A DNA stretch of 64,000 nucleotides, from NCBI GenBank assembly GCA_002418865.1, contig DIEY01000100.1, positions 2,170 to 66,169 on the forward strand. Direction: 5' to 3'. This DNA is from Bacteroidales bacterium UBA5762 (GTDB lineage: Bacteria > Bacteroidota > Bacteroidia > Bacteroidales > TTA-H9). The translations under genes were made by a program, and so were the position numbers. The notes beneath the pieces were generated by a model. It was given only the letters and a program-made list of their open reading frames with translations. It searched no databases and had not been told where the DNA came from. Within the stretch, counting starts at the first letter, position 1; every line of letters begins with the position of its first letter. Positions 3,381 to 49,922 of the stretch are shown here, piece by piece.

Positions 3381-4847
3381 ATGAAGCATATCAATTTTAT
3401 CTTTTTTGCCCTGATATTGATGGCAGGAGCATGTAAAAACGAGCAAGAAACAAACCTTGTAACCCCATCAATGGGAAATTTCGAAGGTAAAAAGCTGGTG
3501 GTTTATCTAACAGCCCAAGCCACGGATGCACGCTTGACTCTTTCACAAACCTCAGTATTTGCTGCTCAGAGACAACCTCTCGAAACGGAATACGTAGTTT
3601 ATGTTAATCCGAACAAAAGTTTTCAGGAGTACTTAGGCGTGGGTGGGGCTATTACCGATGCAGCAGCCGAAACCTTTGCCAAATTAACCCCATCGAATCA
3701 GCAAAAACTATTAGAATGTTACTTCAACAAAGAAAAAGGCATTGGTTATTCCATTATCAGAACCAATATACACAGTTGCGATTTCAGCAGTAATAGTTAT
3801 ACTTACATTGAGGAAGGCGATTCGGCTCTCAAAACCTTCAGCATTGCTCATGATACAGTTTATCGTATTCCACTCATCAAAAAAGCCATGAAAGAAAGTG
3901 GTGAGAAAGCTATTTTGTTTGCCAGCCCTTGGAGTCCTCCTGCATTTATGAAAAGCAATAACAATATGTTGTATGGCGGGAAGCTTTTGCCAAAATATTA
4001 TCAAGCCTGGGCTAACTATTTTGTGAAATTCATCAAGGAATATGAAAAGAAAGGTGTTCCTGTTTGGGGTATAACAGTTCAGAATGAGCCCATGGCTACT
4101 CAAATATGGGAATCATGCATTTATACGGCTGAGGAAGAACGCGATTTCTTGAAGAATTTTCTCGGGCCCACTCTCTCGAATAATGGATTGGGCGACAAAA
4201 AAATTATCGTTTGGGATCATAACCGCGACCTTTTGCCTTATCGAGCCTCGGTCATCTTTAGTGATCCTGAAGCTGCAAAATATGCCTGGGGTATTGGATT
4301 CCACTGGTACGAAGATTGGTCGGGGGGAGCACAAATGTTCGACAATGTAAGAGCCGTTTACGAAGCCTGGCCCGATAAAAATATCCTATTCACCGAAGGA
4401 TGCACCGAAAGTTTCAGACCTGACCATTATGATTACTGGCCTAATGCCGAAGATTATGGCACATCCATGATTCATGATTTCAATAATGGTACTGTAGGTT
4501 GGACTGACTGGAATATCCTTCTCGACGAAGTAGGAGGTCCAAACCATGTAAAAAATTATTGTTTTGCTCCCGTACATGGGAACACCCAAACCGGCGAATT
4601 AATCTTTACCCCTGCCTATTACTATATTGGCCATTTCTCCAAATTTATACAAAGAGGTGCACATCGCATACTGAGTACGCCCAGCCGCAGTGCTTTGCTC
4701 TCCACCTCATTTCTGAATCCCGACGGAAGCATTGCTACTATTGTTATGAACAAATCCGACCAGAATATTCCGTATCTTCTCATTGTCGCCGATGGCTTGG
4801 CTCAATTGAATATTCCGGCTCATGCTATACAAACTATTGTTTATTAA
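3381..4847 (+). CDS. glycoside hydrolase family 30 lipoprotein (glucosylceramidase-like; probable beta-glucosidase/beta-1,6-glucanase)
   Basis: Lipoprotein signal (LILMAGAC). GH30 motifs FASPWSPPAFMK, acid/base ITVQNEP and nucleophile region NILFTEGC. YFVKFIKEY resembles GBA-type GH30. Confidence 0.85.
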   Translation: MKHINFIFFALILMAGACKNEQETNLVTPSMGNFEGKKLVVYLTAQATDARLTLSQTSVFAAQRQPLETEYVVYVNPNKSFQEYLGVGGAITDAAAETFAKLTPSNQQKLLECYFNKEKGIGYSIIRTNIHSCDFSSNSYTYIEEGDSALKTFSIAHDTVYRIPLIKKAMKESGEKAILFASPWSPPAFMKSNNNMLYGGKLLPKYYQAWANYFVKFIKEYEKKGVPVWGITVQNEPMATQIWESCIYTAEEERDFLKNFLGPTLSNNGLGDKKIIVWDHNRDLLPYRASVIFSDPEAAKYAWGIGFHWYEDWSGGAQMFDNVRAVYEAWPDKNILFTEGCTESFRPDHYDYWPNAEDYGTSMIHDFNNGTVGWTDWNILLDEVGGPNHVKNYCFAPVHGNTQTGELIFTPAYYYIGHFSKFIQRGAHRILSTPSRSALLSTSFLNPDGSIATIVMNKSDQNIPYLLIVADGLAQLNIPAHAIQTIVY

Positions 4848-4876
4848 TATATTTTGCAAAAAACATCTTTCCCAAC

Positions 4877-7399
4877 ATGTGTAGATTACGGACTTGTTTA
4901 TTAATGATAACCGCCATAAGTATATTGGCATCTGGGTGTAAAAAACAGCCTCCTTATAAAGATAAGAACCTTGGTGTGGATCAAAGAGTTGAAGATTTGC
5001 TTGAACGAATGACTTTGGATGAAAAAATCGAACAATTAGCCGGCCTTCCCGACTCTTCGGGCATGAAAACGGTTTATAATCGACGTTTAGGCATACCCGA
5101 CTTTAAGATGTGTGATGGACCGGTTGGCGTTAGATGGGACACTTCGACGGCTTTCCCTTCGGGAGTATCACTTGCGGCAACCTTCGATACATCTCTGGCA
5201 AGGCAATATGGCGAAATGATAGCCAAAGAAACTTTGTTCAAGGGAAGAAATTATCTATTGGCTCCTTGCATCAATATTCATCGTTTGCCCACCGGAGGCC
5301 GAAACTTCGAAAGCTATGGCGAAGATCCATTCCTGGCCGGTAAGATTGCTTCGGCATACATCAAAGCTGTACAAAAAGAAGGGGTAATTACTTCGGTAAA
5401 ACATTACGCACTGAACAATCAAGAATGGGAACGCACTCAACTTGACGTAATAGCAGATGAACGAACAATGAGGGAAATATATCTGCCAGCCTTCGAAATG
5501 GCTGTAAAAGAAGGTGGCGCCTATACTGTGATGGCCTCTTATAATAAAATAAATGGCTGGTATGCATCGGAAAACGAACATTTGCTGCAAGATATTCTGA
5601 AAAATGAGTGGGGATTTAAGGGACTGGTAATATCCGACTGGGGAGCAACACATTCTACCAGTAATGCAATTCGCCATGGTTTAGATTTGGAAATGCCTAC
5701 GGGTGAATATCTTAACCGCGATAAAATCATGCACGCCATACAAAAGGGAGAAATCACAAAGGCTGATATCGACAACATGGTAAGAAGAATTCTTTGGGTT
5801 AAATTTCAATCGGGTCTTTTTGATCGCCCCCAGAACCTCTCTTATCCTGATCCTTCCGAGGCATCAGCAGAATTGGCTTATGATGTAGCTGTTCGTTCCA
5901 TCGTTTTACTAAAAAATTCCAATCATATTTTGCCTGTTGACCTTACGAAAATAAAGTCCATAGCGGTAATTGGGCCAAATGCTTCAGTTGCCAGAACTGG
6001 TGGAGGTGGAAGTTCGCATGTCGTGCCTTGGCGTGCTATCGATCCACTAACTCAACTCAAAAATGTTGCAGGTAATCAAGTAGAAATTAACTACGCCCAA
6101 GGAGTAAAACTTAGTGCTAGTCCTTTGCAGGCAATCCCATCCGAGTTTTTAAGAACAAAGGATGGAAAACATGGAATTAATGGAGAATATTTCAAAGGAA
6201 CCCAACTGGAAGGTTCTCCAACATTTCAACGATTAGATAGCAATGTAGACTTTGTTTGGGAAGAGAACGAGCCAGTTCCTTCATTGGGCAAAGACCATTT
6301 TTCGGTACGTTGGACGGGCTATCTCTTAGCTCCCGAAAGCCGAAATTATGTTTTATATACGGCCAGCGACGACGGCATCAGGCTTTATGTAAATAACAAG
6401 TTAATGATAGATAATTGGACCGATCATGGTACAACCATTGACTCGGCTCAGATTTTTCTAAAAGCCGGTGAGAAATATGAAATAAAGCTTGAATTTTTTG
6501 AAAATGCTGGTTCTGCAATATGCCAGTTAGGTTGGGATTACTTTGGTGCTGAAGGCGAAGAAGCAGAAAGGATAGTCGAGGCAGTCAGAGTTGCTAAAGA
6601 GAGTGACATAGCCATTGTTTTCGCTGGTTCGAGCGAATATATCGAAAGTGAAGGATACGACAGAATTGGTGGAATGAAATTGACCTCTGGCCAAGACGAA
6701 CTTATAGAGGCGGTGGTGAAGGCCAATCCTAAGACTATAGTAGTTCTATATGGAGGAACGAGCACAGACATGAGTAAATGGGGAGAAAAAGTTCCAGCTA
6801 TTTTGGATGTATTTTTTCCCGGTCAGGAGGGTTCAAGAGCAATTATCGATATACTGTTGGGTAAGGCCAACCCTTCGGGAAAATTACCTTTCAGTTTCAT
6901 TCAATCTCAACATCAATCTCCTGCTTATAAAGGCTATCAGGATCCTTCTAAGATTGCTCATTATAGCGAAGGCATATATGTGGGTTACAGGTATTATGAG
7001 AAAAATAGAATCCAACCCGCATTTCCTTTCGGATTCGGATTATCCTATACTGAATTCGAATACACTAATATGCAAGTTGAACCACTATCAAAAGATTCTT
7101 GCCTTGTAAGTATAGACATAAAAAATATCGGCCAAATGACAGGAACTGAAATTGTTCAAATTTATGTTGTTCCACCGGATGCCAGTAATAGGCCTTTAAA
7201 GGAGCTCAAAGGATTTGCAGCTGTTACTCTTAGGCCTGGCGAAAACCAAAACGTTAGAATTATACTAAATCCACGTTCTTTCTCCTATTATGACCAAACA
7301 CAAGGAAAGTGGGTCATACAAAGTGGAAAATATACAATCTTGGCTTCCAGTTCCTCAGTCGATACACGTCAACAGGCTTTTTTCGAAATTATGCCCTGA
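4877..7399 (+). CDS. glycoside hydrolase family 3 beta-glucosidase lipoprotein with inserted PA14 domain
   Basis: ATG at 4877 gives the lipoprotein signal MCRLRTCLLMITAISILASGC. GH3 motifs KHYALNNQE and nucleophile GLVISDWGA. PA14-like segment GINGEYFKG...FSVRWTGYL...LYVNNKLMIDNW (about 6170-6540). The upstream part of the 946-aa ORF overlaps the GH30 gene and is rejected. Confidence 0.9.
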   Translation: MCRLRTCLLMITAISILASGCKKQPPYKDKNLGVDQRVEDLLERMTLDEKIEQLAGLPDSSGMKTVYNRRLGIPDFKMCDGPVGVRWDTSTAFPSGVSLAATFDTSLARQYGEMIAKETLFKGRNYLLAPCINIHRLPTGGRNFESYGEDPFLAGKIASAYIKAVQKEGVITSVKHYALNNQEWERTQLDVIADERTMREIYLPAFEMAVKEGGAYTVMASYNKINGWYASENEHLLQDILKNEWGFKGLVISDWGATHSTSNAIRHGLDLEMPTGEYLNRDKIMHAIQKGEITKADIDNMVRRILWVKFQSGLFDRPQNLSYPDPSEASAELAYDVAVRSIVLLKNSNHILPVDLTKIKSIAVIGPNASVARTGGGGSSHVVPWRAIDPLTQLKNVAGNQVEINYAQGVKLSASPLQAIPSEFLRTKDGKHGINGEYFKGTQLEGSPTFQRLDSNVDFVWEENEPVPSLGKDHFSVRWTGYLLAPESRNYVLYTASDDGIRLYVNNKLMIDNWTDHGTTIDSAQIFLKAGEKYEIKLEFFENAGSAICQLGWDYFGAEGEEAERIVEAVRVAKESDIAIVFAGSSEYIESEGYDRIGGMKLTSGQDELIEAVVKANPKTIVVLYGGTSTDMSKWGEKVPAILDVFFPGQEGSRAIIDILLGKANPSGKLPFSFIQSQHQSPAYKGYQDPSKIAHYSEGIYVGYRYYEKNRIQPAFPFGFGLSYTEFEYTNMQVEPLSKDSCLVSIDIKNIGQMTGTEIVQIYVVPPDASNRPLKELKGFAAVTLRPGENQNVRIILNPRSFSYYDQTQGKWVIQSGKYTILASSSSVDTRQQAFFEIMP

Positions 7400-40262: not shown

Positions 40263-42740
40263 ATGGATTATACCATCTCATCGCTTGCAAATCTCGTCTC
40301 TCCTCATTGGGTTTCACTTCCTTACCCAAACGATGCGATTCATTTTCTACTTACCGATAGCCGACGACTGATAGAGGCAAAGTCTACGCTTTTTTTCGCC
40401 ATCGCTACTTCACGCAATGATGGCCACCGCTATATTGAAGATCTTTTCAGAAAAGGAGTAAGAAATTTCGTCATCACTAATACCCAAATCTTCCCTAATT
40501 TATTAGAACATGCCAATCTGATTCAAGTTGAAAATTCAGTACATGCATTACAAAAGATTGCTGCTGCTCATAGGGCTGCATTTCAAATACCTGTTTTAGG
40601 AATCACAGGAAGTAACGGAAAAACCATTGTAAAGGAATGGCTCACTCAGATTCTATCTACTCAACTCTCTATTTGTGCTAGTCCAGATAGTTACAACTCT
40701 CAGATTGGCGTGCCTCTTTCGGTATGGCAATTAAACAGCCATCATCAACTGGGAATATTCGAGGCAGGCATATCGCAACCAAACGAAATGGAAAATCTTC
40801 AAAGAATAATTCGACCTAACTACGGAATCTTTACTAACATTGGACAGGCTCATTCTGAAAACTTCAATTCCATAGAAGAAAAAGCAAAAGAGAAATTAAA
40901 ACTTTTCAAAGACTCAGAAGTATTGATTTATTGCAGAGACGACGAGGTTATTCATCAATTAATAAAAAAATATTTAAATAAAAAAATAAAACTTATTACC
41001 TGGGGCGAAAACCCAGAATCTACATTTCGACTTATCCATAAAACACGAAATGGCAAATCCACCATTCTTTCCATATATTTTAAAAAGCACGAGAAAGTTG
41101 TAGAATTACCTGTTAGCGATAATGCCTCCATAGAAAATGCGATGCATTGTTATACCTTTCTCGATTATTTAGGATGGGATGATAAAAAAAAGGCCGAGGC
41201 TATGCTTCAACTCCATCCTATTCCCATGCGAATGGAAATGATGGAAGGTATCAACCAATGCACATTGATTAACGATACTTACAACAGCGATATCAATTCT
41301 CTCGAGGTTGCTCTTGATTATTTGAATAGACAGGCTGGCGACCGTCCAACTACGGTAATTCTTTCTGATATATTACAGAGCGGGCAAAATCCTGCCGAGT
41401 TATACAAGCATGTCGCTCATTTGTTAAATCAAAAAAAAGTGGGACGAGTGATAGGCATAGGTTCTGAAATATCAAAATACGCAGGCTTATTCCCCATGCA
41501 GAAACAATTCTACATTTCTACTAACCAATTTATGGTCGAATTTCCCTTTTCAAGCCTCCAAAACGATGTCATTCTGCTTAAGGGAGCTCGTTCTTTCGAG
41601 TTCGAAAACATTACGCGATTATTGAGGCGACTTTCCCATCAAACTGTGCTCGAAATCAATCTGGAAAATCTGATTCACAATTTCAATTTTTATAAGCAGA
41701 AAACAAGACCAGGGACACTTACATTGGCCATGGTGAAGGCATTTGGCTATGGAAGTGGAATGCACGAAATAGCCGGTGCTCTGCAGCAAAATGGAGTGGA
41801 CTGGCTTGGTGTGGCTTATCCCGACGAAGGAGCTCAGCTTAGAAAAGCCGGAATCCAAACGCCGATTATGGTTATGAATCCCGAAAACGAAAATCTCGAT
41901 CTTATAACGCAATATCATTTAGAACCAGAAATATATAGCCAGACTACATTAACCGAGCTGGCATATTACTTATCTTATCACCGACCCGATTATTTTCCCT
42001 TTCCTGTTCATTTAAAATTCGATACAGGCATGCACAGATTAGGATTTTTGCCCGAACAACTCGATGAAGCCCTCAAGTTTCTTAAACATCATCCCGAAAT
42101 CAAAATAAAGTCGGTATTTTCGCACCTTGCTGCCAGTGAAGATCCAAATATGGATTATTTTACACGAAAACAAGCCGGAATTTTCGAAGAAATGGCACAG
42201 AAAACTATGGAAGCCTTAGGATATTCCATTATCAGGCATTTGGTCAATTCAGCCGGAATAATACGATTTCCTGAGTATCATTACGAAATGGTACGCATTG
42301 GGCTCGGATTGTATGGAATAGGTCACGACCAACCAACACAGCGCTCGCTCCAATTAGTAAGCAAATTCTCGTCAGTAATCTCTCAAATTAAAATGATTCG
42401 CAAAGGCGAAGGAATAGGCTACAATCTGAGATGGAAGGCGCCTGCCGACACCCTTATCGGGATTGTCCCTGTGGGTTATGCCGATGGATTGCGAAGAGAA
42501 TTGGCGTCCAAAGGATTTTGTTTTAGCGTACATGGTCATATAGCTCCTTTAATTGGTACCATTTCTATGGATATGTGTGCCATTGATTTAACCGGCACAA
42601 ACGCAACAGAAGGCGACCCAGTCATCATTTTCGACAATGCAGATACCATTCACCAACTTTCTCGTTTACTTAATACCATCCCTTACGAAATATTAACTTC
42701 TATCTCCCAACGAGTTAGAAGAGTATATCTCATGGGTTAA
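40263..42740 (+). CDS. bifunctional UDP-MurNAc-tripeptide:D-Ala-D-Ala ligase (MurF) / alanine racemase (Alr)
   Basis: The N-terminal half has the Mur ligase P-loop (GITGSNGKT). The C-terminal half has the PLP-binding Alr motif (AMVKAFGYGSG) and PVGYADG. Confidence 0.9.
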   Translation: MDYTISSLANLVSPHWVSLPYPNDAIHFLLTDSRRLIEAKSTLFFAIATSRNDGHRYIEDLFRKGVRNFVITNTQIFPNLLEHANLIQVENSVHALQKIAAAHRAAFQIPVLGITGSNGKTIVKEWLTQILSTQLSICASPDSYNSQIGVPLSVWQLNSHHQLGIFEAGISQPNEMENLQRIIRPNYGIFTNIGQAHSENFNSIEEKAKEKLKLFKDSEVLIYCRDDEVIHQLIKKYLNKKIKLITWGENPESTFRLIHKTRNGKSTILSIYFKKHEKVVELPVSDNASIENAMHCYTFLDYLGWDDKKKAEAMLQLHPIPMRMEMMEGINQCTLINDTYNSDINSLEVALDYLNRQAGDRPTTVILSDILQSGQNPAELYKHVAHLLNQKKVGRVIGIGSEISKYAGLFPMQKQFYISTNQFMVEFPFSSLQNDVILLKGARSFEFENITRLLRRLSHQTVLEINLENLIHNFNFYKQKTRPGTLTLAMVKAFGYGSGMHEIAGALQQNGVDWLGVAYPDEGAQLRKAGIQTPIMVMNPENENLDLITQYHLEPEIYSQTTLTELAYYLSYHRPDYFPFPVHLKFDTGMHRLGFLPEQLDEALKFLKHHPEIKIKSVFSHLAASEDPNMDYFTRKQAGIFEEMAQKTMEALGYSIIRHLVNSAGIIRFPEYHYEMVRIGLGLYGIGHDQPTQRSLQLVSKFSSVISQIKMIRKGEGIGYNLRWKAPADTLIGIVPVGYADGLRRELASKGFCFSVHGHIAPLIGTISMDMCAIDLTGTNATEGDPVIIFDNADTIHQLSRLLNTIPYEILTSISQRVRRVYLMG

Positions 42741-42753
42741 AAACTATTCTCTC

Positions 42754-45054
42754 ATGGAACAAGCCACCTTGAGTATTATAATTCCTGCTTATAACGAAGA
42801 AAGAACCATTGCAGAAGTTACGCGTAGGGTTTGGGAAACACCATTACAAGAAAACGTTACTCGCGAAATTATCATCGTAGACGACGGAAGCAAAGATGCA
42901 ACCGTAAAAGTAGTAAAAGAATTCTTGAATCAAAATAACGACAAGAATATCCGATTGATCGAATGTGGGAAAAATCGTGGGAAAGGAGCAGCTATTCGTG
43001 AAGGAATAAAACAGGCCAGTGGCAAATGGATCATTATTCAAGATGCAGATATGGAATATAATCCTCGAGATTACAATATCTTGCTTCAACCTGCACTCGA
43101 AGGATATGCCGATGTGGTTTACGGGTCGAGATTTGTGGGAGGCAATCCTCACCGCATCCTATTTTTTTGGCATTCTATCGGAAATAAATTCCTTACTTTT
43201 ATTTCGAATGCTTTCACTAATCTCAATCTCAGCGACATGGAAACCGGCTATAAACTGTTTAGAGCCGATATATTAAAGAGTATAGAATTAGAAGAGAATC
43301 GTTTCGGATTCGAAACAGAGGTTACAGCAAAGATTGCCCGAATACCTGGAATTCGTATCTACGAAGTAGGTATTGCCTACTATGGCCGAACCTATGAAGA
43401 AGGGAAAAAAATAAAGGCAAAAGATGGATTTCGTGCATTATACACTATTCTAAAATATAACCTCCAACGCAAAAATCCCCGACGTCCTGTTGCCTTGGCT
43501 ATTACCCTGCTTTTATTGTTCATACTTGGTTTGAAAATCAATGATTATTACAAGGGAAAACCATTCAATTTCACTGTCAACGATGCGGGTGAATATTACC
43601 AGTATCTGCCTGCTCTTTTCATTCATCACGATCTTGGATTTAGCTTTCTCGATAAAACAACTCCTGCCGAATACATACATTATTATAAATTTTCGGCCCT
43701 TCGTTTAGAAAATGGAAAAGCTACAGGTAAAATGAGTTTGGGCATGGCTATGATGCTTACCCCAGGTTTCCTCATCGCTCATGGTATAGCCTTATTAACT
43801 GGCTTACCTGCCGATGGATTCTCGCCTCCTTATCAATGGGCAATTCTCCTGAGTAATTTACTTTTTTTAGGACTTGGAATCTACTTTACGCTCAAAACCC
43901 TTTTCCGTTATTTCGACAGCATTGCCTCGGTGGTAACCATTATTATGTTAGTGCTTGCAACTAACGTATTGGCTTATGTTTACCTGCATCCTGGATATTC
44001 CCACATCTTTACTTTTGGTTTAATGGGAATGCTCTTGTATGTAACCGATAGTTTTTATCGCAAACCATCCATCGGGCTGGCCATTAAGTCAGGTTTGCTT
44101 ATGGGTTTTATCAGTCTCATACGACCGAGCAACACAATAGTCGGACTGCTATTTTTGCTTTGGGGAACGCTTTCAGTTGGCGACTTAAAAAAAAGATTCC
44201 AATTTTTCATAAAGAATTATCATCTGGCTTTGATAATTGTTGCTTCAATCCTCATAGTCTGGCTGCCACAAATGATTTATTGGAAATGGGTAAGCGGCAA
44301 GTTTTTCTTATACACTTATGGACTAAAGGAAGAAAGATTTTATTTTGGTAATCCTCAAATAATTAATGTTTTACTAAGCTATCGCAATGGATGGCTGGTT
44401 TATTCCCCTCTGTTTTTCCTTGCATTGCTTGGTTTTATTTTTATGATAAAGAACAAAAACCGACAAGTGTTAGCCATAGGTTTATATTTTATTGGACTGG
44501 TATATATTATTTCATCGTGGTGGTGCTGGTGGTATGGGGGTTCGTTTGGAGCTCGTAGCTTAATAGATGCCTACCCGGCTCTGGCTTTCCCATTAGCAGC
44601 TTTCTTCGAAAAAACCGAAAAAACTCCTTGGTGGATACAAGTCTTACTACTTGTTGTGTGCGCTTATCTCATCCATCTGAATTACTATCAATCTTATCAA
44701 TATTCCAAAGGAATCATACATTGGGATGGAATGTCGAAAGAAGCCTATTGGAGATCTATAAAAGAAAAACATCCTCAAAAAGATTATTATCAATTATTTG
44801 TAATTCCCAATACGCCTTATGCCCAAAAAGGAATTTATTTCGTACACGATACCTTGAACATTCGAAAGCCTCAAACTTTGGGAGAGAAAGAATTTATCGA
44901 AAAAATAAAAAGCAATATTCGGATTAATAAAGAATGGATGCAAGTAATAGAAGAAAAAGCCAAACGAAAAGGAATATCTATTGATTCTATGGTCACACTC
45001 GATGCTCTACACGTTTTCAAAACTAGATATCACGACAAAGTTCCAAAACAATAG
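42754..45054 (+). CDS. fusion of a GT2 polyprenol-phosphate glycosyltransferase-like domain (aa ~1-235) with a large polytopic GT-C-like membrane domain
   Basis: GT2 motifs LSIIIPAYNEE, IIVDDGSKD and QDADMEY (DxD). About 12 hydrophobic segments follow, beginning with a conserved loop VNDAGEYYQYLPALFIHHD. The start is 13 nt after the murF-alr stop. Confidence 0.75.
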   Translation: MEQATLSIIIPAYNEERTIAEVTRRVWETPLQENVTREIIIVDDGSKDATVKVVKEFLNQNNDKNIRLIECGKNRGKGAAIREGIKQASGKWIIIQDADMEYNPRDYNILLQPALEGYADVVYGSRFVGGNPHRILFFWHSIGNKFLTFISNAFTNLNLSDMETGYKLFRADILKSIELEENRFGFETEVTAKIARIPGIRIYEVGIAYYGRTYEEGKKIKAKDGFRALYTILKYNLQRKNPRRPVALAITLLLLFILGLKINDYYKGKPFNFTVNDAGEYYQYLPALFIHHDLGFSFLDKTTPAEYIHYYKFSALRLENGKATGKMSLGMAMMLTPGFLIAHGIALLTGLPADGFSPPYQWAILLSNLLFLGLGIYFTLKTLFRYFDSIASVVTIIMLVLATNVLAYVYLHPGYSHIFTFGLMGMLLYVTDSFYRKPSIGLAIKSGLLMGFISLIRPSNTIVGLLFLLWGTLSVGDLKKRFQFFIKNYHLALIIVASILIVWLPQMIYWKWVSGKFFLYTYGLKEERFYFGNPQIINVLLSYRNGWLVYSPLFFLALLGFIFMIKNKNRQVLAIGLYFIGLVYIISSWWCWWYGGSFGARSLIDAYPALAFPLAAFFEKTEKTPWWIQVLLLVVCAYLIHLNYYQSYQYSKGIIHWDGMSKEAYWRSIKEKHPQKDYYQLFVIPNTPYAQKGIYFVHDTLNIRKPQTLGEKEFIEKIKSNIRINKEWMQVIEEKAKRKGISIDSMVTLDALHVFKTRYHDKVPKQ

Positions 45055-45074: not shown

Positions 45075-46484
45075 ATGACATTCAATTCACTGCCTTTTCT
45101 TATTTTTCTGCCTATTGTCGTCATCACATATTATCTTTTAGCACCAAAGTGGCGATGGATAATGCTACTCGCGGCCAGTTACTTGTTTTATATGTGGTGG
45201 AATCCAGCCTATATCATTTTAATTCTTTTTTCAACCCTTATTAATTTTTACTCGAGTCATGCCATCGAAAGACATGCATCAAAACAACAAAAGAAAAAAT
45301 ATCTTTACTTATGCTTAATTACCAATTTAGGAATTTTATTTATCTTTAAATATTATGGCTTATTTACACAAGCCTTCATGGGTATTGCCGATATTTTTGG
45401 TGTAAAAGCCCGCTTGCCTTTTCTCAATTTATTACTTCCAGTAGGAATCTCATTTTATACTTTCCAAACTTTAAGTTATACCCTAAATGTATATTTTGGG
45501 AAACAAAAAGCGGAAAAACATCTCGGATATTTTGCTCTTTTTGTTACTTTCTTTCCTCAGTTAGTAGCCGGACCCATAGAGCGCTATGATAGGCTTACAC
45601 CTCAGTTGAAAACCCCACATTATCCTTCATACGAAAACTTTTCCAATGGTTTTAGGCTAATCATTTTCGGATTATTCATCAAAATGGTTATTGCAGACAA
45701 TTTAGCTCCTTACGTAGAAGAAATTTACAGTCAACCTGCGGCATACAACACTTTTCACCTTATGGCAGGGCTTGGGTTTTATTCCTTTCAGATTTATGCC
45801 GATTTTTATGGATATTCGACCATAGCCCTTGGTTCGGCTCTACTAATAGGGGTCAATTTAATGGATAATTTCAAGACTCCTTATTTATCGGCAAGCATTC
45901 GGGAATTTTGGAGACGCTGGCATATCAGTCTTAGTACATGGTTCCGCGATTATGTTTATATTCCTCTTGGAGGCAACCGTGTAAAATGGAGCAGATGGGC
46001 ACTTAATATCTTCATAGTTTATACACTGAGCGGATTGTGGCATGGCGCCAATTGGACATTTTTAATTTGGGGAAGTATTTTTGGTCTTATGTTCATTATT
46101 GAAAGATTTTTCTACGAACGCTTCGGAATTATCAGTACACAGAAATGGGGAATAAGAAGAATTTTTGGCGTGCTCATCACTTTTGTAATCGTCACTCTTG
46201 CATGGATTTTTTTCCGTAGCAGCTCATTATCGAATGCCCTCTCCATGTTCGAGGCATTATGGAATAACACTGTATTGGCCGATCCATGGCGGCCCGATCC
46301 TTTTATAATGTTCTGGCTTGGATTGTTCATTATTCTCGATATACTCCTTTTTAACAACCGTTTCGATCAATGGTGCTCTAAAAAACCTTTATGGCTGAGA
46401 TGGACTATCTACACATTGCTCATTTTCGGTATCACAGCCTTTAGTGGAATAGATAATCAACCCTTTATATATTTCCAGTTCTGA
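45075..46484 (+). CDS. MBOAT family membrane-bound O-acyltransferase (AlgI/DltB/PatA-like)
   Basis: Polytopic protein with MBOAT signatures FFPQLVAGPIERY and the invariant His region FWRRWHISLSTWFRDYVYIPLGG. Confidence 0.9.
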   Translation: MTFNSLPFLIFLPIVVITYYLLAPKWRWIMLLAASYLFYMWWNPAYIILILFSTLINFYSSHAIERHASKQQKKKYLYLCLITNLGILFIFKYYGLFTQAFMGIADIFGVKARLPFLNLLLPVGISFYTFQTLSYTLNVYFGKQKAEKHLGYFALFVTFFPQLVAGPIERYDRLTPQLKTPHYPSYENFSNGFRLIIFGLFIKMVIADNLAPYVEEIYSQPAAYNTFHLMAGLGFYSFQIYADFYGYSTIALGSALLIGVNLMDNFKTPYLSASIREFWRRWHISLSTWFRDYVYIPLGGNRVKWSRWALNIFIVYTLSGLWHGANWTFLIWGSIFGLMFIIERFFYERFGIISTQKWGIRRIFGVLITFVIVTLAWIFFRSSSLSNALSMFEALWNNTVLADPWRPDPFIMFWLGLFIILDILLFNNRFDQWCSKKPLWLRWTIYTLLIFGITAFSGIDNQPFIYFQF

Positions 46485-48013
46485 TGAAGCCGCTTGCCGC
46501 CAAAATATTGCCCCGCCTTTTCATATTAGCCATTATTGCTTTTCTATTGAATTGGATCTATACCGTTGAGTTTTATCCCCGCGACCTGAAAAAAATCGAC
46601 TTACTCGATTCTCTCCAGAAAGTTATACCTCAATCCGATGTCATCTATTTCGGAGAATCATCCAATTTTAGTTTTATATATGAAGACTACGATCAACGCC
46701 GCATAAGTGATTTCATAACTGATTATTTTCCGGGACTGCAAATGGGTACGGTCAATAAAGGAGCCTTGCATGCCGGCATCTATCTGAGACTGCTGCAGCA
46801 AATTCCACCTGAGGCTCCCGTAAAAACAATAATTATTACCATGAACCTGCGTTCCTTCTCTGCCGACTGGATTTATTCGAAACTCGAAAACGTGTTACAA
46901 CGCGACATGGTTCTTATTAGCGATGGACCTCCACTTTGGAATCGATTCCGTTTAGGACTCAAGGCTTATGATAATAAAACCTCCATGCAGCGTAGCCTGC
47001 AGGTAAAACATGCTCTAAAAACCCAAGCTTTACCTGTTGACCCTCCTTGCAACTTCCCCAATGCGGCCGCATGGATAGAAACCATCAAGAAATCGCCAAC
47101 TTATCCCTTGATTGAAGATAGTGTAGCAAAAGCACTGGCCGTTTCATTCGTCATCAATTATGGTTTTCAAATCGATACCATGGATAATCCAAGAATTCAT
47201 GATTTTGATGATATCGTAAAATACGCTCACCAAAGAGGTTGGCAGGTAATATTGAATATTTTACCTGAAAATACACAGCTATCTTCTGCATTATTAGGGC
47301 CATGTCTTAAAAAACTAATGATGAGCAATGCAGAATTGCTCACCAAAAGATACGAAAGTCAAGGTGCAATCGTAGTAAATAATCTCGAGTTGGTTGATTC
47401 ATCACACTTCAGCGATAAAAAATGGCCAACCGAGCATTACGATGAGTATGGTCGAAAAATGGTAGCCCGTCAAATAGCTCTAAGCATGAAAAATCTTTAT
47501 CCAAACTATTTTTCCGATGTATTCATGAAATCCAATTTCACTTGTGATTACGAAACCCCATCACCCTTTTTTCTTACACTTAGAAAAGATTCAACTTGCT
47601 CTCGTTCGGGAAAATTTGCCGAGAGACTCGATACGAATAACGCATTTGGAGCCAGATTTGTCAGACATTATTACGAAGTGAAAACTCTTAATCCTCAAAA
47701 AATTACTGCCAGCGGATGGTTTACTGGAAACTATCAGCCTAAGGATGTAAAACTCATCATTAGCATCGAAGATGATAAGAAACAAAGCAAACTTTGGACG
47801 GCTAGCGTTTCGAAAGACATGGAAAATGGGAAATGGGCTTCACTACAAGTGAGTGCAACTATTCCCGAGAATTTCGGCCCTAATGATGTAATAAAAGTAT
47901 ATTTCTGGTACACAGGGAAAAACTCGGTCTGGATAGATGATGTAAACATTACGCTACAAACTGAGAATTTGAACACTGAATCCGATACAATTTCTTCTTT
48001 AATCGAAAATTAA
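46484..48013 (+). CDS. membrane-anchored extracytoplasmic protein: SGNH/DltD-like N-terminal domain (tentative) plus C-terminal beta-sandwich (CBM-like) domain; probable partner of the MBOAT protein
   Basis: Its ATG overlaps the MBOAT stop (TGATG). Single N-terminal TM helix. GDS-like block VIYFGESSN and block-V-like WPTEHYDEYGRKMVARQIA. The C-terminal 160 aa are homologous to the C-terminus of the next gene. Confidence 0.6.
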   Translation: MKPLAAKILPRLFILAIIAFLLNWIYTVEFYPRDLKKIDLLDSLQKVIPQSDVIYFGESSNFSFIYEDYDQRRISDFITDYFPGLQMGTVNKGALHAGIYLRLLQQIPPEAPVKTIIITMNLRSFSADWIYSKLENVLQRDMVLISDGPPLWNRFRLGLKAYDNKTSMQRSLQVKHALKTQALPVDPPCNFPNAAAWIETIKKSPTYPLIEDSVAKALAVSFVINYGFQIDTMDNPRIHDFDDIVKYAHQRGWQVILNILPENTQLSSALLGPCLKKLMMSNAELLTKRYESQGAIVVNNLELVDSSHFSDKKWPTEHYDEYGRKMVARQIALSMKNLYPNYFSDVFMKSNFTCDYETPSPFFLTLRKDSTCSRSGKFAERLDTNNAFGARFVRHYYEVKTLNPQKITASGWFTGNYQPKDVKLIISIEDDKKQSKLWTASVSKDMENGKWASLQVSATIPENFGPNDVIKVYFWYTGKNSVWIDDVNITLQTENLNTESDTISSLIEN

Positions 48014-48080
48014 TCACTCCAAATAAATTTTCTATCTTTCAAAAATTTATATCACTTACTATTGAATTAATAACACATTT

Positions 48081-49922
48081 ATGAAAAAGATAAAATACCC
48101 CATTTCGACAGCAAGTCTGCTCTTATGTGTGATTGTATTAATAGGTGTGCGCTTGAATTATCCTCCCAAAAATATATTGACGTACGATACTTTTGGCTAT
48201 TATATTCATTTACCCGCCCGTCATATTTACCACGACCCTATGATTCAAAATTTCGAGTGGGTAACGGAAATAAACCAGAAATACAATAACACTCCAACAT
48301 TTTATCAATTTTCAGAAGGAATAAACGGACAGAAAGTCATTCGTTTTAATCGAGGTATTTCTTACCTTCTGGCTCCTGGGTTCTATGCCGGCCATGTTTG
48401 GGCAAAATTGAGCGGAGCTCCTCAAGATGGCTTCTCTAAACCCTACCAACAAGCAATTTGGATCTGGGGAATGATTTTTAACCTCTTGGGATTCTATCTC
48501 ATAAAAAAAATTCTGCTCCGTTATTTTAACGATCTTACCACAGCCATAACACTGGTAGTTATTCTACTGATAAGTAATCTTTATTTCTTTTATGGCTACG
48601 GCAACGATATTCCTCATGTTTATTTGTTCACTCTCAACGCTGCTCTCATTTGGTTTAGCATTCGCTGGCATCATCATTTTAAGATATGGGATGCAGCCCT
48701 TATTGGATTTACGCTTGGCATCATCGCTATTACACGCATGAGTGAGATACTCATCGTTTTTATTCCATTATTATGGGGCGTAAAAAATAAAGAAAGTCTA
48801 CATTCACAATTACGACTCTTCTGTAATAAATGGCAACATATTGTGTTTGCCGTAATTGCAGGAATTATTCCTATATTAAGCCAGATTATTTACTGGAAAC
48901 AAGCCTCTGGACAATTTGTGTATCATGTTTATACAGATCCGGGCTCAACGCTCGATTTGATGAATCCACGGTTTTTTTATACTTTACTAAGTTTCCGCAA
49001 GGGCTGGTTGATATATGTTCCTGTGATGATATTTGCTTTATGGGGTATCTACAAGGCCTTCCGCAGAAAGGAAGAATGGGCATGGGCTGTATTAGTGTAT
49101 ATTGCACTCAATTTTTATGTGATTTCAAGTTTTAGCAGCTTGTTAAGCTATGGATGGAGGGCTTTTCTCCAGTCGTATGCCGCACTTGTTCTTCCCATGG
49201 GCATATTTATACAATGGATGCTTTCGAGAAAACCTCTCGCCATCGCTGGATGGTGCATTATTCTGGCAATCTTAGGTGTAATAAACATCTTTCAAGCATG
49301 GCAAATCAATATGGGTATCATCGACGGTTCACGCATGACGATGAAATATTATGTTTCGGTTTTTATGAAAAAACATCCTCCCGAAAATGCAAAAAAATAT
49401 CTTTTGGTTCAGCGCTCGGTCACTGGCAGAGAAAATTTGGAAAAAACTGACAACTATTTCAACCATGTCTTAAAATTTTACGATTTCGAAACACCTAATC
49501 CCAACCTTAAGTCACATATCGATTCCATCGTTTCTTTTTCGGGAAAATATTGTTTGAGGCTGGACAGTACGATTGAATATACTCCCGGACTCGAATGTTC
49601 TTATGGCGATATAAGTAATGGTAAATATGCATGGATAAGAATCAGTGCAAGGGTATATCCTACCCAACAGCTCGAAGATGCTTCGGTTTCGCTGGTGACG
49701 CACGCCATTCGAAACAAACAGACTTATAAATATTCAGCGAGAAAAATTACAGATACAATTTTCCACGTACAACCCAATCAATGGAATTATGTCTGGCACG
49801 ATTACATGACCCCCGAACCAATTTCAGCCGAAGATGGCATCAAAAGCTATATTTGGAACCGAAGCAAGTACCCGGTATTTATCGACGATATCCGCATCGA
49901 AGTATTCGAACCCATTCTGTAG
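48081..49922 (+). CDS. polytopic GT-C-like membrane protein (paralog of the membrane domain of 42754..45054) with C-terminal beta-sandwich (CBM-like) domain
   Basis: About 11 hydrophobic segments. Conserved loops YDTFGYYIHLPARHIYHD and GAPQDGFSKPYQQAI match the upstream fusion protein. The C-terminus ends YPVFIDDIRIEVFE. Confidence 0.7.
   Translation: MKKIKYPISTASLLLCVIVLIGVRLNYPPKNILTYDTFGYYIHLPARHIYHDPMIQNFEWVTEINQKYNNTPTFYQFSEGINGQKVIRFNRGISYLLAPGFYAGHVWAKLSGAPQDGFSKPYQQAIWIWGMIFNLLGFYLIKKILLRYFNDLTTAITLVVILLISNLYFFYGYGNDIPHVYLFTLNAALIWFSIRWHHHFKIWDAALIGFTLGIIAITRMSEILIVFIPLLWGVKNKESLHSQLRLFCNKWQHIVFAVIAGIIPILSQIIYWKQASGQFVYHVYTDPGSTLDLMNPRFFYTLLSFRKGWLIYVPVMIFALWGIYKAFRRKEEWAWAVLVYIALNFYVISSFSSLLSYGWRAFLQSYAALVLPMGIFIQWMLSRKPLAIAGWCIILAILGVINIFQAWQINMGIIDGSRMTMKYYVSVFMKKHPPENAKKYLLVQRSVTGRENLEKTDNYFNHVLKFYDFETPNPNLKSHIDSIVSFSGKYCLRLDSTIEYTPGLECSYGDISNGKYAWIRISARVYPTQQLEDASVSLVTHAIRNKQTYKYSARKITDTIFHVQPNQWNYVWHDYMTPEPISAEDGIKSYIWNRSKYPVFIDDIRIEVFEPIL

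Follow-up and report, generated by a model that had tools for sequence, protein, structure and literature searches.

Two adjacent genes in a 64,000-nucleotide stretch of contig DIEY01000100.1 of Bacteroidales bacterium UBA5762 (the whole stretch is henceforth the window) encode proteins of different folds that end in the same kind of domain. One protein, of 509 residues, combines a membrane anchor with an SGNH-like domain. The other, of 613 residues, is a polytopic protein, putatively a GT-C glycosyltransferase. The C-terminal segments of both are copies of one subfamily, absent from Pfam, of the beta-jelly-rolls typical of carbohydrate-binding module (CBM) families 4, 9, 16, and 22, about 145 residues in length. 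The subfamily is found mainly in Bacteroidota, where it is a mobile accessory module on the predicted extracytoplasmic end of enzymes that build envelope glycans. Its carriers are a DltD-like SGNH partner of MBOAT acyltransferases of the PatA/AlgI type, small lipoproteins, and at least three distinct polytopic families, two of them with PMT_2 (GT-C) signals and one unassigned. I propose that the module handles the polymeric acceptor of these enzymes, and I consider this likely. The sharing of the module says that two enzymes handle their acceptors in the same kind of way, not that they act on the same substrate.

An earlier note on this DNA, made from the sequence alone, had pointed to three pairs of similar sequence blocks in the two C-termini. 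All three are present as written in the two open reading frames (ORFs). The frame of the second segment begins at nucleotide 49461 rather than 49460. The homology of the two C-termini is confirmed and lies far beyond chance. When the full proteins are aligned by BLASTP, only the C-termini match (25% identity over 202 columns, E 5e-8), and hhalign, applied to the two family profiles, likewise aligns the C-terminal domain alone (148 columns, probability 98.9%, E 1.4e-17). With the first domain as query, the complete assembly (2.8 Mb) yields the second at E 5.4e-6, along with two extra copies on other contigs (their E-values are in Table 1). Started from either window copy, jackhmmer converges on the same four ORFs of the genome. 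It might be argued that a pairwise identity of just 25% is the product of chance or of composition, an idea to which I give practically no credence: it is already refuted by the pairwise and profile-profile E-values, by reciprocal iterative searches that reach the same ORFs, and by two independent models that share one fold.

The limits of the two domains were taken from AlphaFold models (residues 351-492 of the 509-residue protein, about 462-610 of the 613-residue protein). Both are confidently predicted beta-jelly-rolls, with a predicted local distance difference test (pLDDT) score of about 90, in the range of 140-160 residues, so that the beta-sandwich supposed in the earlier note is borne out. 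The AlphaFold2 model of the first protein, built on a 43-sequence alignment of its family (pLDDT 89.9, predicted template-modelling score 0.87), consists of a transmembrane helix (residues 4-36), an alpha/beta domain (53-335), and the beta-sandwich (351-492), after which a disordered tail runs to nucleotide 48010. The C-terminus of the second protein, modelled as a domain by itself with a 70-sequence alignment, has nine strands (pLDDT 90.4). When the models are compared with the PDB by Foldseek, the first sandwich has CBM16, CBM22, and CBM61 at the top of its matches, and the second has CBM22-1 first (4xuo, E 2.9e-5), accompanied by a porphyran-binding CBM, CBM16, and CBM4-2. Both models match CBM22, CBM16, CBM4 (CBM4-2), and CBM61 with a probability of 1.00 and target-normalised template-modelling (TM) scores of about 0.5-0.62. 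Sequence profiles lead to the same place: a profile of the four genomic copies finds the CBM22 tandem 4xup_A in the PDB at E 2.4e-5, and a profile of the 70 domain sequences finds 4xup at E 6e-8. The CBM4/9/22 type proposed in the earlier note is therefore right as regards fold and distant homology. The Pfam check that it suggested gave less, for no model reached threshold with either segment. Pfam CBM_4_9 (PF02018) matches nine of the 70 members of the domain family, all below threshold and with E 4e-4 at best.

The known CBM22, CBM16, and CBM4 modules (PF02018; for example CBM22-1 and CBM22-2 of Paenibacillus barcinonensis Xyn10C: 4xuo, 4xun, 4xup) share with the window domain the beta-jelly-roll of about 145 residues, the terminal '..iDD..i' strand, a conserved core tryptophan, occurrence in tandem, and the profile similarity just given. 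The window domain differs in falling below the Pfam threshold and in its hosts, which are membrane-bound biosynthetic transferases acting in the periplasm, whereas the known modules belong to secreted glycoside hydrolases. Its own signature, found throughout the family, combines D-x-E close to the first strand with SGK, the core tryptophan, and, in the last strand, IDD. D-x-E and DD might correspond to the structural Ca2+ site of CBM4/6/22-type modules, a suggestion given no weight here.

The domain is numerous and unevenly spread. A profile search of 1.84 billion representative sequences finds it in 2966 clusters (50% identity) at E<=1e-3 and in 880 at E<=1e-10. In an even sample of the phylum, 8 of 201 genomes carry it at E<=1e-5, and its distribution is therefore patchy. 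The genome under study has four copies: the SGNH-like protein, a protein of the 613-type, one of the PMT_2-type, and another membrane protein without family assignment each carry one. Among the best 150 matches, one to three tandem copies of the domain come after any of three membrane scaffolds (the 613-type, the PMT_2-type, and the type encoded on contig C40), one or two come after the SGNH-like domain, and others stand alone in small lipoproteins, some of which have lipoprotein signal peptides. Most of the carriers that can be identified among these 150 are carbohydrate-active biosynthetic enzymes. The module is separable from its hosts: hhalign of the 613-type against the PMT_2-type family aligns the CBM-like domain and nothing else, and 21 of 80 SGNH-like homologues lack the domain. 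About a third of the best 150 matches are proteins of yet another build, 650-780 residues with an N-terminal anchor, two tandem domains, and some 400 C-terminal residues without a family match (P0124-P0139, for example); none of this type was found in the present genome.

That the two window copies are appended to hosts of different folds, as the earlier note had it, is correct, one host having a DltD-like SGNH alpha/beta domain and the other being a polytopic, GT-C-like protein. The model of the 509-residue protein shows an alpha/beta/alpha fold with a five-stranded parallel sheet (strands 53-57, 87-91, 115-120, 254-259, and 296-299) and helices on its flanks. Invariant in 43 homologues are S59 and S60 of the motif GESSN, N121, D311, and the pair E317-H318. 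The serine of block I and the histidine of block V are conserved, and the spacing of acid and histidine is unlike the classical DxxH. DltD (3bma_C, E 1.8e-5) is the only match to the catalytic domain among the 50 Foldseek matches listed. No Pfam SGNH model matches the N-terminal domain, and the profile of the family finds nothing in the PDB for the catalytic part. The single N-terminal transmembrane helix, preceded by basic residues, is a type-II anchor, and the CBM-like domain of this protein is therefore extracytoplasmic. The family of the DltD-like domain has at least 489 homologues (P0001-P0120 among them), seemingly all in Bacteroidota, and is covered by neither a Pfam nor an NCBIfam model. 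Some NCBI records call its members "DUF4843 domain-containing", and 22 of 43 members have weak, probably spurious matches to Pfam TRAPP models (best E 5.6e-5).

The SGNH-like gene rarely stands without an MBOAT gene. Of 80 loci from species genomes, found with a full-length alignment of the 509-residue family, 77 have it next to and following an MBOAT gene. The window MBOAT ends in FIYFQF (nucleotides 46464-46481), which fits FxYxxF, the C-terminal acyl-shuttle motif of PatA-type MBOATs, whose tyrosine carries acetyl from PatA to PatB (PMC12148441). A motif of the FIYFQF type is present in 75 of the 76 MBOAT orthologues beside an SGNH-like gene. D-alanylation was considered, as suggested by an upstream alr and by DltB-like and DltD-like matches, and is unlikely: in this genome, 95.6% complete, DltC has no match at E<=0.01, the best match to the DltA model scores 136 bits where the cut-off is 560, and the MBOAT has an FxYxxF motif of its own. 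Going by the sequences, the MBOAT and its SGNH partner are best read as an O-acyl relay of the PatA/PatB or AlgI/AlgX kind, because of the FxYxxF motif and because there is no DltC and no DltA above cut-off.

The comparison with characterised relays brings out what is particular to this one. PatA/PatB and DltB/DltX/DltD (PMC12148441) have the genes for the MBOAT and the SGNH partner side by side, as here; PatA ends in FxYxxF, as does the window MBOAT; and the partner in both systems has a DltD-like fold and an N-terminal transmembrane anchor, like the 509-residue protein. PatB, however, is described without a carbohydrate-binding domain (PMC12148441), whereas the 509-residue partner has a CBM-like one. 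Closer in this respect is AlgX of Pseudomonas aeruginosa (PMC4148444), a periplasmic SGNH-like acetyltransferase with a C-terminal beta-sandwich of CBM type, paired with the MBOAT AlgI. The AlgX module is proposed to steer the polymer towards the active site (PMC4148444). The N-terminal domain of the 509-residue protein differs from that of AlgX in being DltD-like by fold, in having its block-I serine first (GESSN), and in being anchored in the membrane; AlgX_N matches just one of 43 members of the family, at E 0.1. The window has no alginate operon, and its CBM subfamily is a different one.

The 613-residue protein has about 11 hydrophobic segments, taken as transmembrane helices, in its first 406 residues. 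Its membrane domain is paralogous (E 2e-51) to the membrane half of a 766-residue fusion protein encoded three genes upstream. In the 613-type family an aspartate (D36) is invariant in the loop Y-D-x-F-G-Y-Y after the first transmembrane helix, that is, in the first extracytoplasmic loop, and 3 of 15 members match Pfam PMT_2, with E down to 2e-5. The 613-residue protein itself has no match in Pfam or NCBIfam, and profiles of three membrane-protein families find nothing in the PDB for their catalytic parts, no solved GT-C enzyme being matched. It is GT-C-like, and its membership in GT-C is putative. The fusion protein begins with a GT2 domain resembling polyprenyl-phosphate-sugar synthases (residues 1-235), and goes on to a polytopic domain (240-677) that matches the NCBIfam model of the putative glycosyltransferases LA_3751/LA_3752 (E 1.7e-14, residues 363-651). 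Where the 613-residue protein has its CBM-like domain, the fusion has none. The tail found there (residues about 678-766, window nucleotides 44780-45051) is short and very basic (22 K+R in 124 residues).

A model of the 613-residue protein with 11 transmembrane helices, N-terminus inside and C-terminus outside, places clusters of lysine and arginine in every loop predicted to be cytoplasmic (density 0.21 versus 0.11), and on this model the CBM-like domain would be periplasmic. Such a topology fits that of GT-C enzymes with a beta-rich periplasmic domain after the eleventh helix (PMC11127046). EmbC, too, has a C-terminal CBM, proposed to hold or feed the acceptor (PMC3044687). The 613-residue protein resembles the arabinofuranosyltransferases EmbC and AftD and the GT136 enzyme ORF12 (PMC3044687, PMC11127046) in being polytopic and putatively of the GT-C type, with a presumed lipid-linked donor and a lectin-like beta domain after the last transmembrane helix. 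It differs from them in that its membrane domain has no detectable sequence relation to solved GT-C enzymes, in the CBM subfamily, and in its setting: a Bacteroidota genome in which an acyltransferase partner has the module as well.

The two genes belong to a tight row on the + strand (Table 1) comprising a murF-alr fusion, the GT2 fusion, the MBOAT, and the 509- and 613-residue proteins. Pfam recognises the GT2 and MBOAT domains and has no match in the 509- or 613-residue protein. The stop codon of the MBOAT gene overlaps the start of the 509-residue gene (TGATG), and 67 nucleotides separate the latter from the 613-residue gene. A scan for sigma-70 promoters and terminators gave results at the level of shuffled sequence and was uninformative. 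Seven loci conserve the row (the window, L006, L007, L008 in part, L094, L095, and L097), the full row being M17 peptidase, PdxA, MurF-Alr, GT2::GT-C, MBOAT, SGNH-CBM, and GT-C-CBM; the SGNH-like proteins of these loci are 42-81% identical. L096, slightly more distant, keeps only GT2, MBOAT, and SGNH. Outside this one lineage, the MBOAT and SGNH-CBM pair occurs without any GT-C neighbour, and its other conserved neighbours amount to an occasional GT2 (10 of 80 loci).

Table 1. Genes and domains of the row in the window, and the other carriers of the domain in the same genome
Feature	Position	Strand	Evidence or remark
murF-alr fusion	40263-42740	+	
766-residue GT2::GT-C-like fusion	42754..45054	+	Pfam Glycos_transf_2 E 6e-35; NCBIfam LA_3751/LA_3752
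469-residue MBOAT acyltransferase	45075..46484	+	Pfam MBOAT E 7.6e-31
509-residue protein, whole ORF	46484..48013	+	
509-residue protein, N-terminal part: transmembrane anchor and DltD-like SGNH-type domain	46484..47488	+	AlphaFold2, Foldseek, invariant columns
509-residue protein, CBM4/9/16/22-like beta-jelly-roll (residues 351-492)	47534..47959	+	BLASTP, AlphaFold2, Foldseek, hhalign
613-residue protein, whole ORF	48081..49922	+	
613-residue protein, polytopic domain (residues 1-406), GT-C membership putative	48081..49298	+	Paralogy, PMT_2, invariant columns, hydropathy, positive-inside rule
613-residue protein, CBM4/9/16/22-like beta-jelly-roll (residues 462-610)	49464..49910	+	BLASTP, AlphaFold2, Foldseek, hhalign
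645-residue PMT_2-type (GT-C) carrier, L002	G000:C43:24526-26460		Unlinked contig; E 2.1e-8
Polytopic carrier of at least 582 residues, third family, without annotation, L004	G000:C40:1-1833		Cut by contig end; E 1.9e-4

Some of the related loci depart from this pattern. In L032, from an uncultured Bacteroidales of a more distant lineage, the MBOAT and SGNH-CBM pair again adjoins murF-alr, which here is on the other strand, and folE and a GT2 gene are close by. The association with murF-alr may predate the five-gene row, or may reflect simple synteny. In L037 (positions 4237-6891, - strand), from a metagenome-assembled genome of Bacteroidota, three consecutive ORFs downstream of an MBOAT-SGNH pair correspond to the GT2, the membrane part of GT-C type, and the CBM-like domain, which reflects either a split gene or frameshifts. 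The GT-C-like proteins downstream in L094 (9550-11430) and L095 (9571-11424) have a very divergent C-terminal domain (E 2.8e-12, long branch), seemingly without the terminal IDD strand motif.

Several points weigh against the idea that the module handles a glycan acceptor. Neither window copy has a Pfam match even at E<=1. Against solved CBMs the models reach moderate TM-scores (0.45-0.62). The Foldseek matches also place the same fold in receptor-binding domains of toxins, TNF-like lectins, and phage fibres, and the fold alone is therefore no proof of sugar binding, which for this family is a predicted property. The evidence on the hosts has soft spots of its own: the match to DltD is weak (target-normalised TM-score 0.40, rank 41), and the periplasmic placement of the copy on the GT-C-like protein rests on a transmembrane model made by hand. 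An alternative view is that the domain is no lectin at all, but a spacer or protein-protein module that docks to a common partner in the periplasm or outer membrane or sets the reach of the enzyme above the membrane. Toxins, TNF-like proteins, and phage fibres do use jelly-rolls of this sort to bind proteins and receptors, the Pfam CBM models all stay below threshold, and the conserved residues (D/E of the N-terminal strand, G, W, and DD of the last strand) look more like structural positions than like the lining of a cleft. Yet the best matches, in sequence and in structure, are consistently true CBMs (CBM22, CBM16, CBM4, CBM61, and the porphyran-binding CBM). Most identified carriers are carbohydrate-active and biosynthetic, with the proviso that about a third of the best 150 have a C-terminal region lacking a family match, and one to three tandem copies are typical of CBMs. 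I regard a role apart from sugar as improbable.

Another alternative is that both copies recognise one envelope glycan, so that glycosylation and acylation are aimed at a single polymer through a common module. The earlier note went so far as to call the shared domain direct evidence of one substrate for both enzymes, and this claim is not supported. The domain is on four proteins of the genome, two of them unlinked membrane proteins; it is found in about 3000 clusters and many architectures; it is missing from 21 of the 80 SGNH-like homologues; and the blocks that were quoted (D-x-E, SGK, W, IDD) are core motifs of the whole family. A promiscuous accessory domain held in common is weak evidence of a common substrate. 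Among the arguments for a single glycan is that seven loci, with SGNH-like identities of 42-81%, keep the four genes as neighbours. Mild hints are that the window copies are 28% identical, compared with 16-25% for the other genomic pairs, and that about 10 of the 15 positions near-invariant in the 613-type domain are retained in the SGNH-borne copy, compared with about 6-7 in the other two copies. A quick LG+G4 tree also put the SGNH-borne copy of the window lineage inside the clade borne by membrane proteins. However, this placement dissolves under the LG+C20 mixture model with more rows, including extra loci, which leaves three clades in a polytomy where the window copies are not close relatives, and an approximately unbiased (AU) test does not reject the grouping of all SGNH-borne copies in a single clade (p-AU 0.44). 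A domain swap between the neighbours, considered as an origin, was dropped on the same grounds. Moreover, within the genome the SGNH-borne copy is matched best by the unlinked protein of the PMT_2-type, ahead of its neighbour; thousands of other proteins carry the domain; and beyond one lineage the MBOAT and SGNH-CBM pair does without a GT-C neighbour. One glycan for both enzymes is possible, then, and I am inclined to doubt it. That they belong to a common pathway is plausible, to judge from gene order, because that order is kept in seven loci and not because of the domain.

The row might work as follows. The GT2 domain would load or make a polyprenyl-phosphate sugar, which the two GT-C-like paralogues would transfer, in the periplasm, to an envelope glycan. 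The tyrosine of the C-terminal FIYFQF of the MBOAT would receive an acyl group, probably acetyl taken from acyl-CoA, and pass it to the serine of GESSN in the SGNH-like protein, which would place it on a glycan. In both branches the module would bind polymeric glycan on the outer side of the inner membrane, holding the acceptor or feeding it to the adjacent catalytic site. The CBM of AlgX (PMC4148444) and the C-terminal CBM of EmbC (PMC3044687) are proposed to work likewise.

The design as such is known from AlgX and EmbC. What is new here is a subfamily that Pfam does not cover. CBMs are known mostly from secreted, degradative enzymes. This sizeable subfamily is attached, by contrast, almost exclusively to membrane-bound biosynthetic enzymes of Bacteroidota, partners of MBOATs and several polytopic GT-C-like or PMT_2-type families. 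It is a bolder and rather unlikely proposition that the domain defines a new CBM family for a bacterial envelope glycan (peptidoglycan strands, or a periplasmic or outer-membrane polysaccharide specific to Bacteroidota) and serves acyl- and glycosyltransferases as a common acceptor device. If it were true, Bacteroidota would have in the widespread MBOAT and SGNH-CBM pair their own, still uncharacterised, equivalent of PatA/PatB, with a targeting module built in. Should glycan binding of any kind hold, the module would offer a handle for finding the acceptor polymers of orphan enzymes, a basis for annotating a DltD-like family that lacks a Pfam model and whose members are mostly named "hypothetical", and a probe for the envelope glycans of uncultured Bacteroidota.

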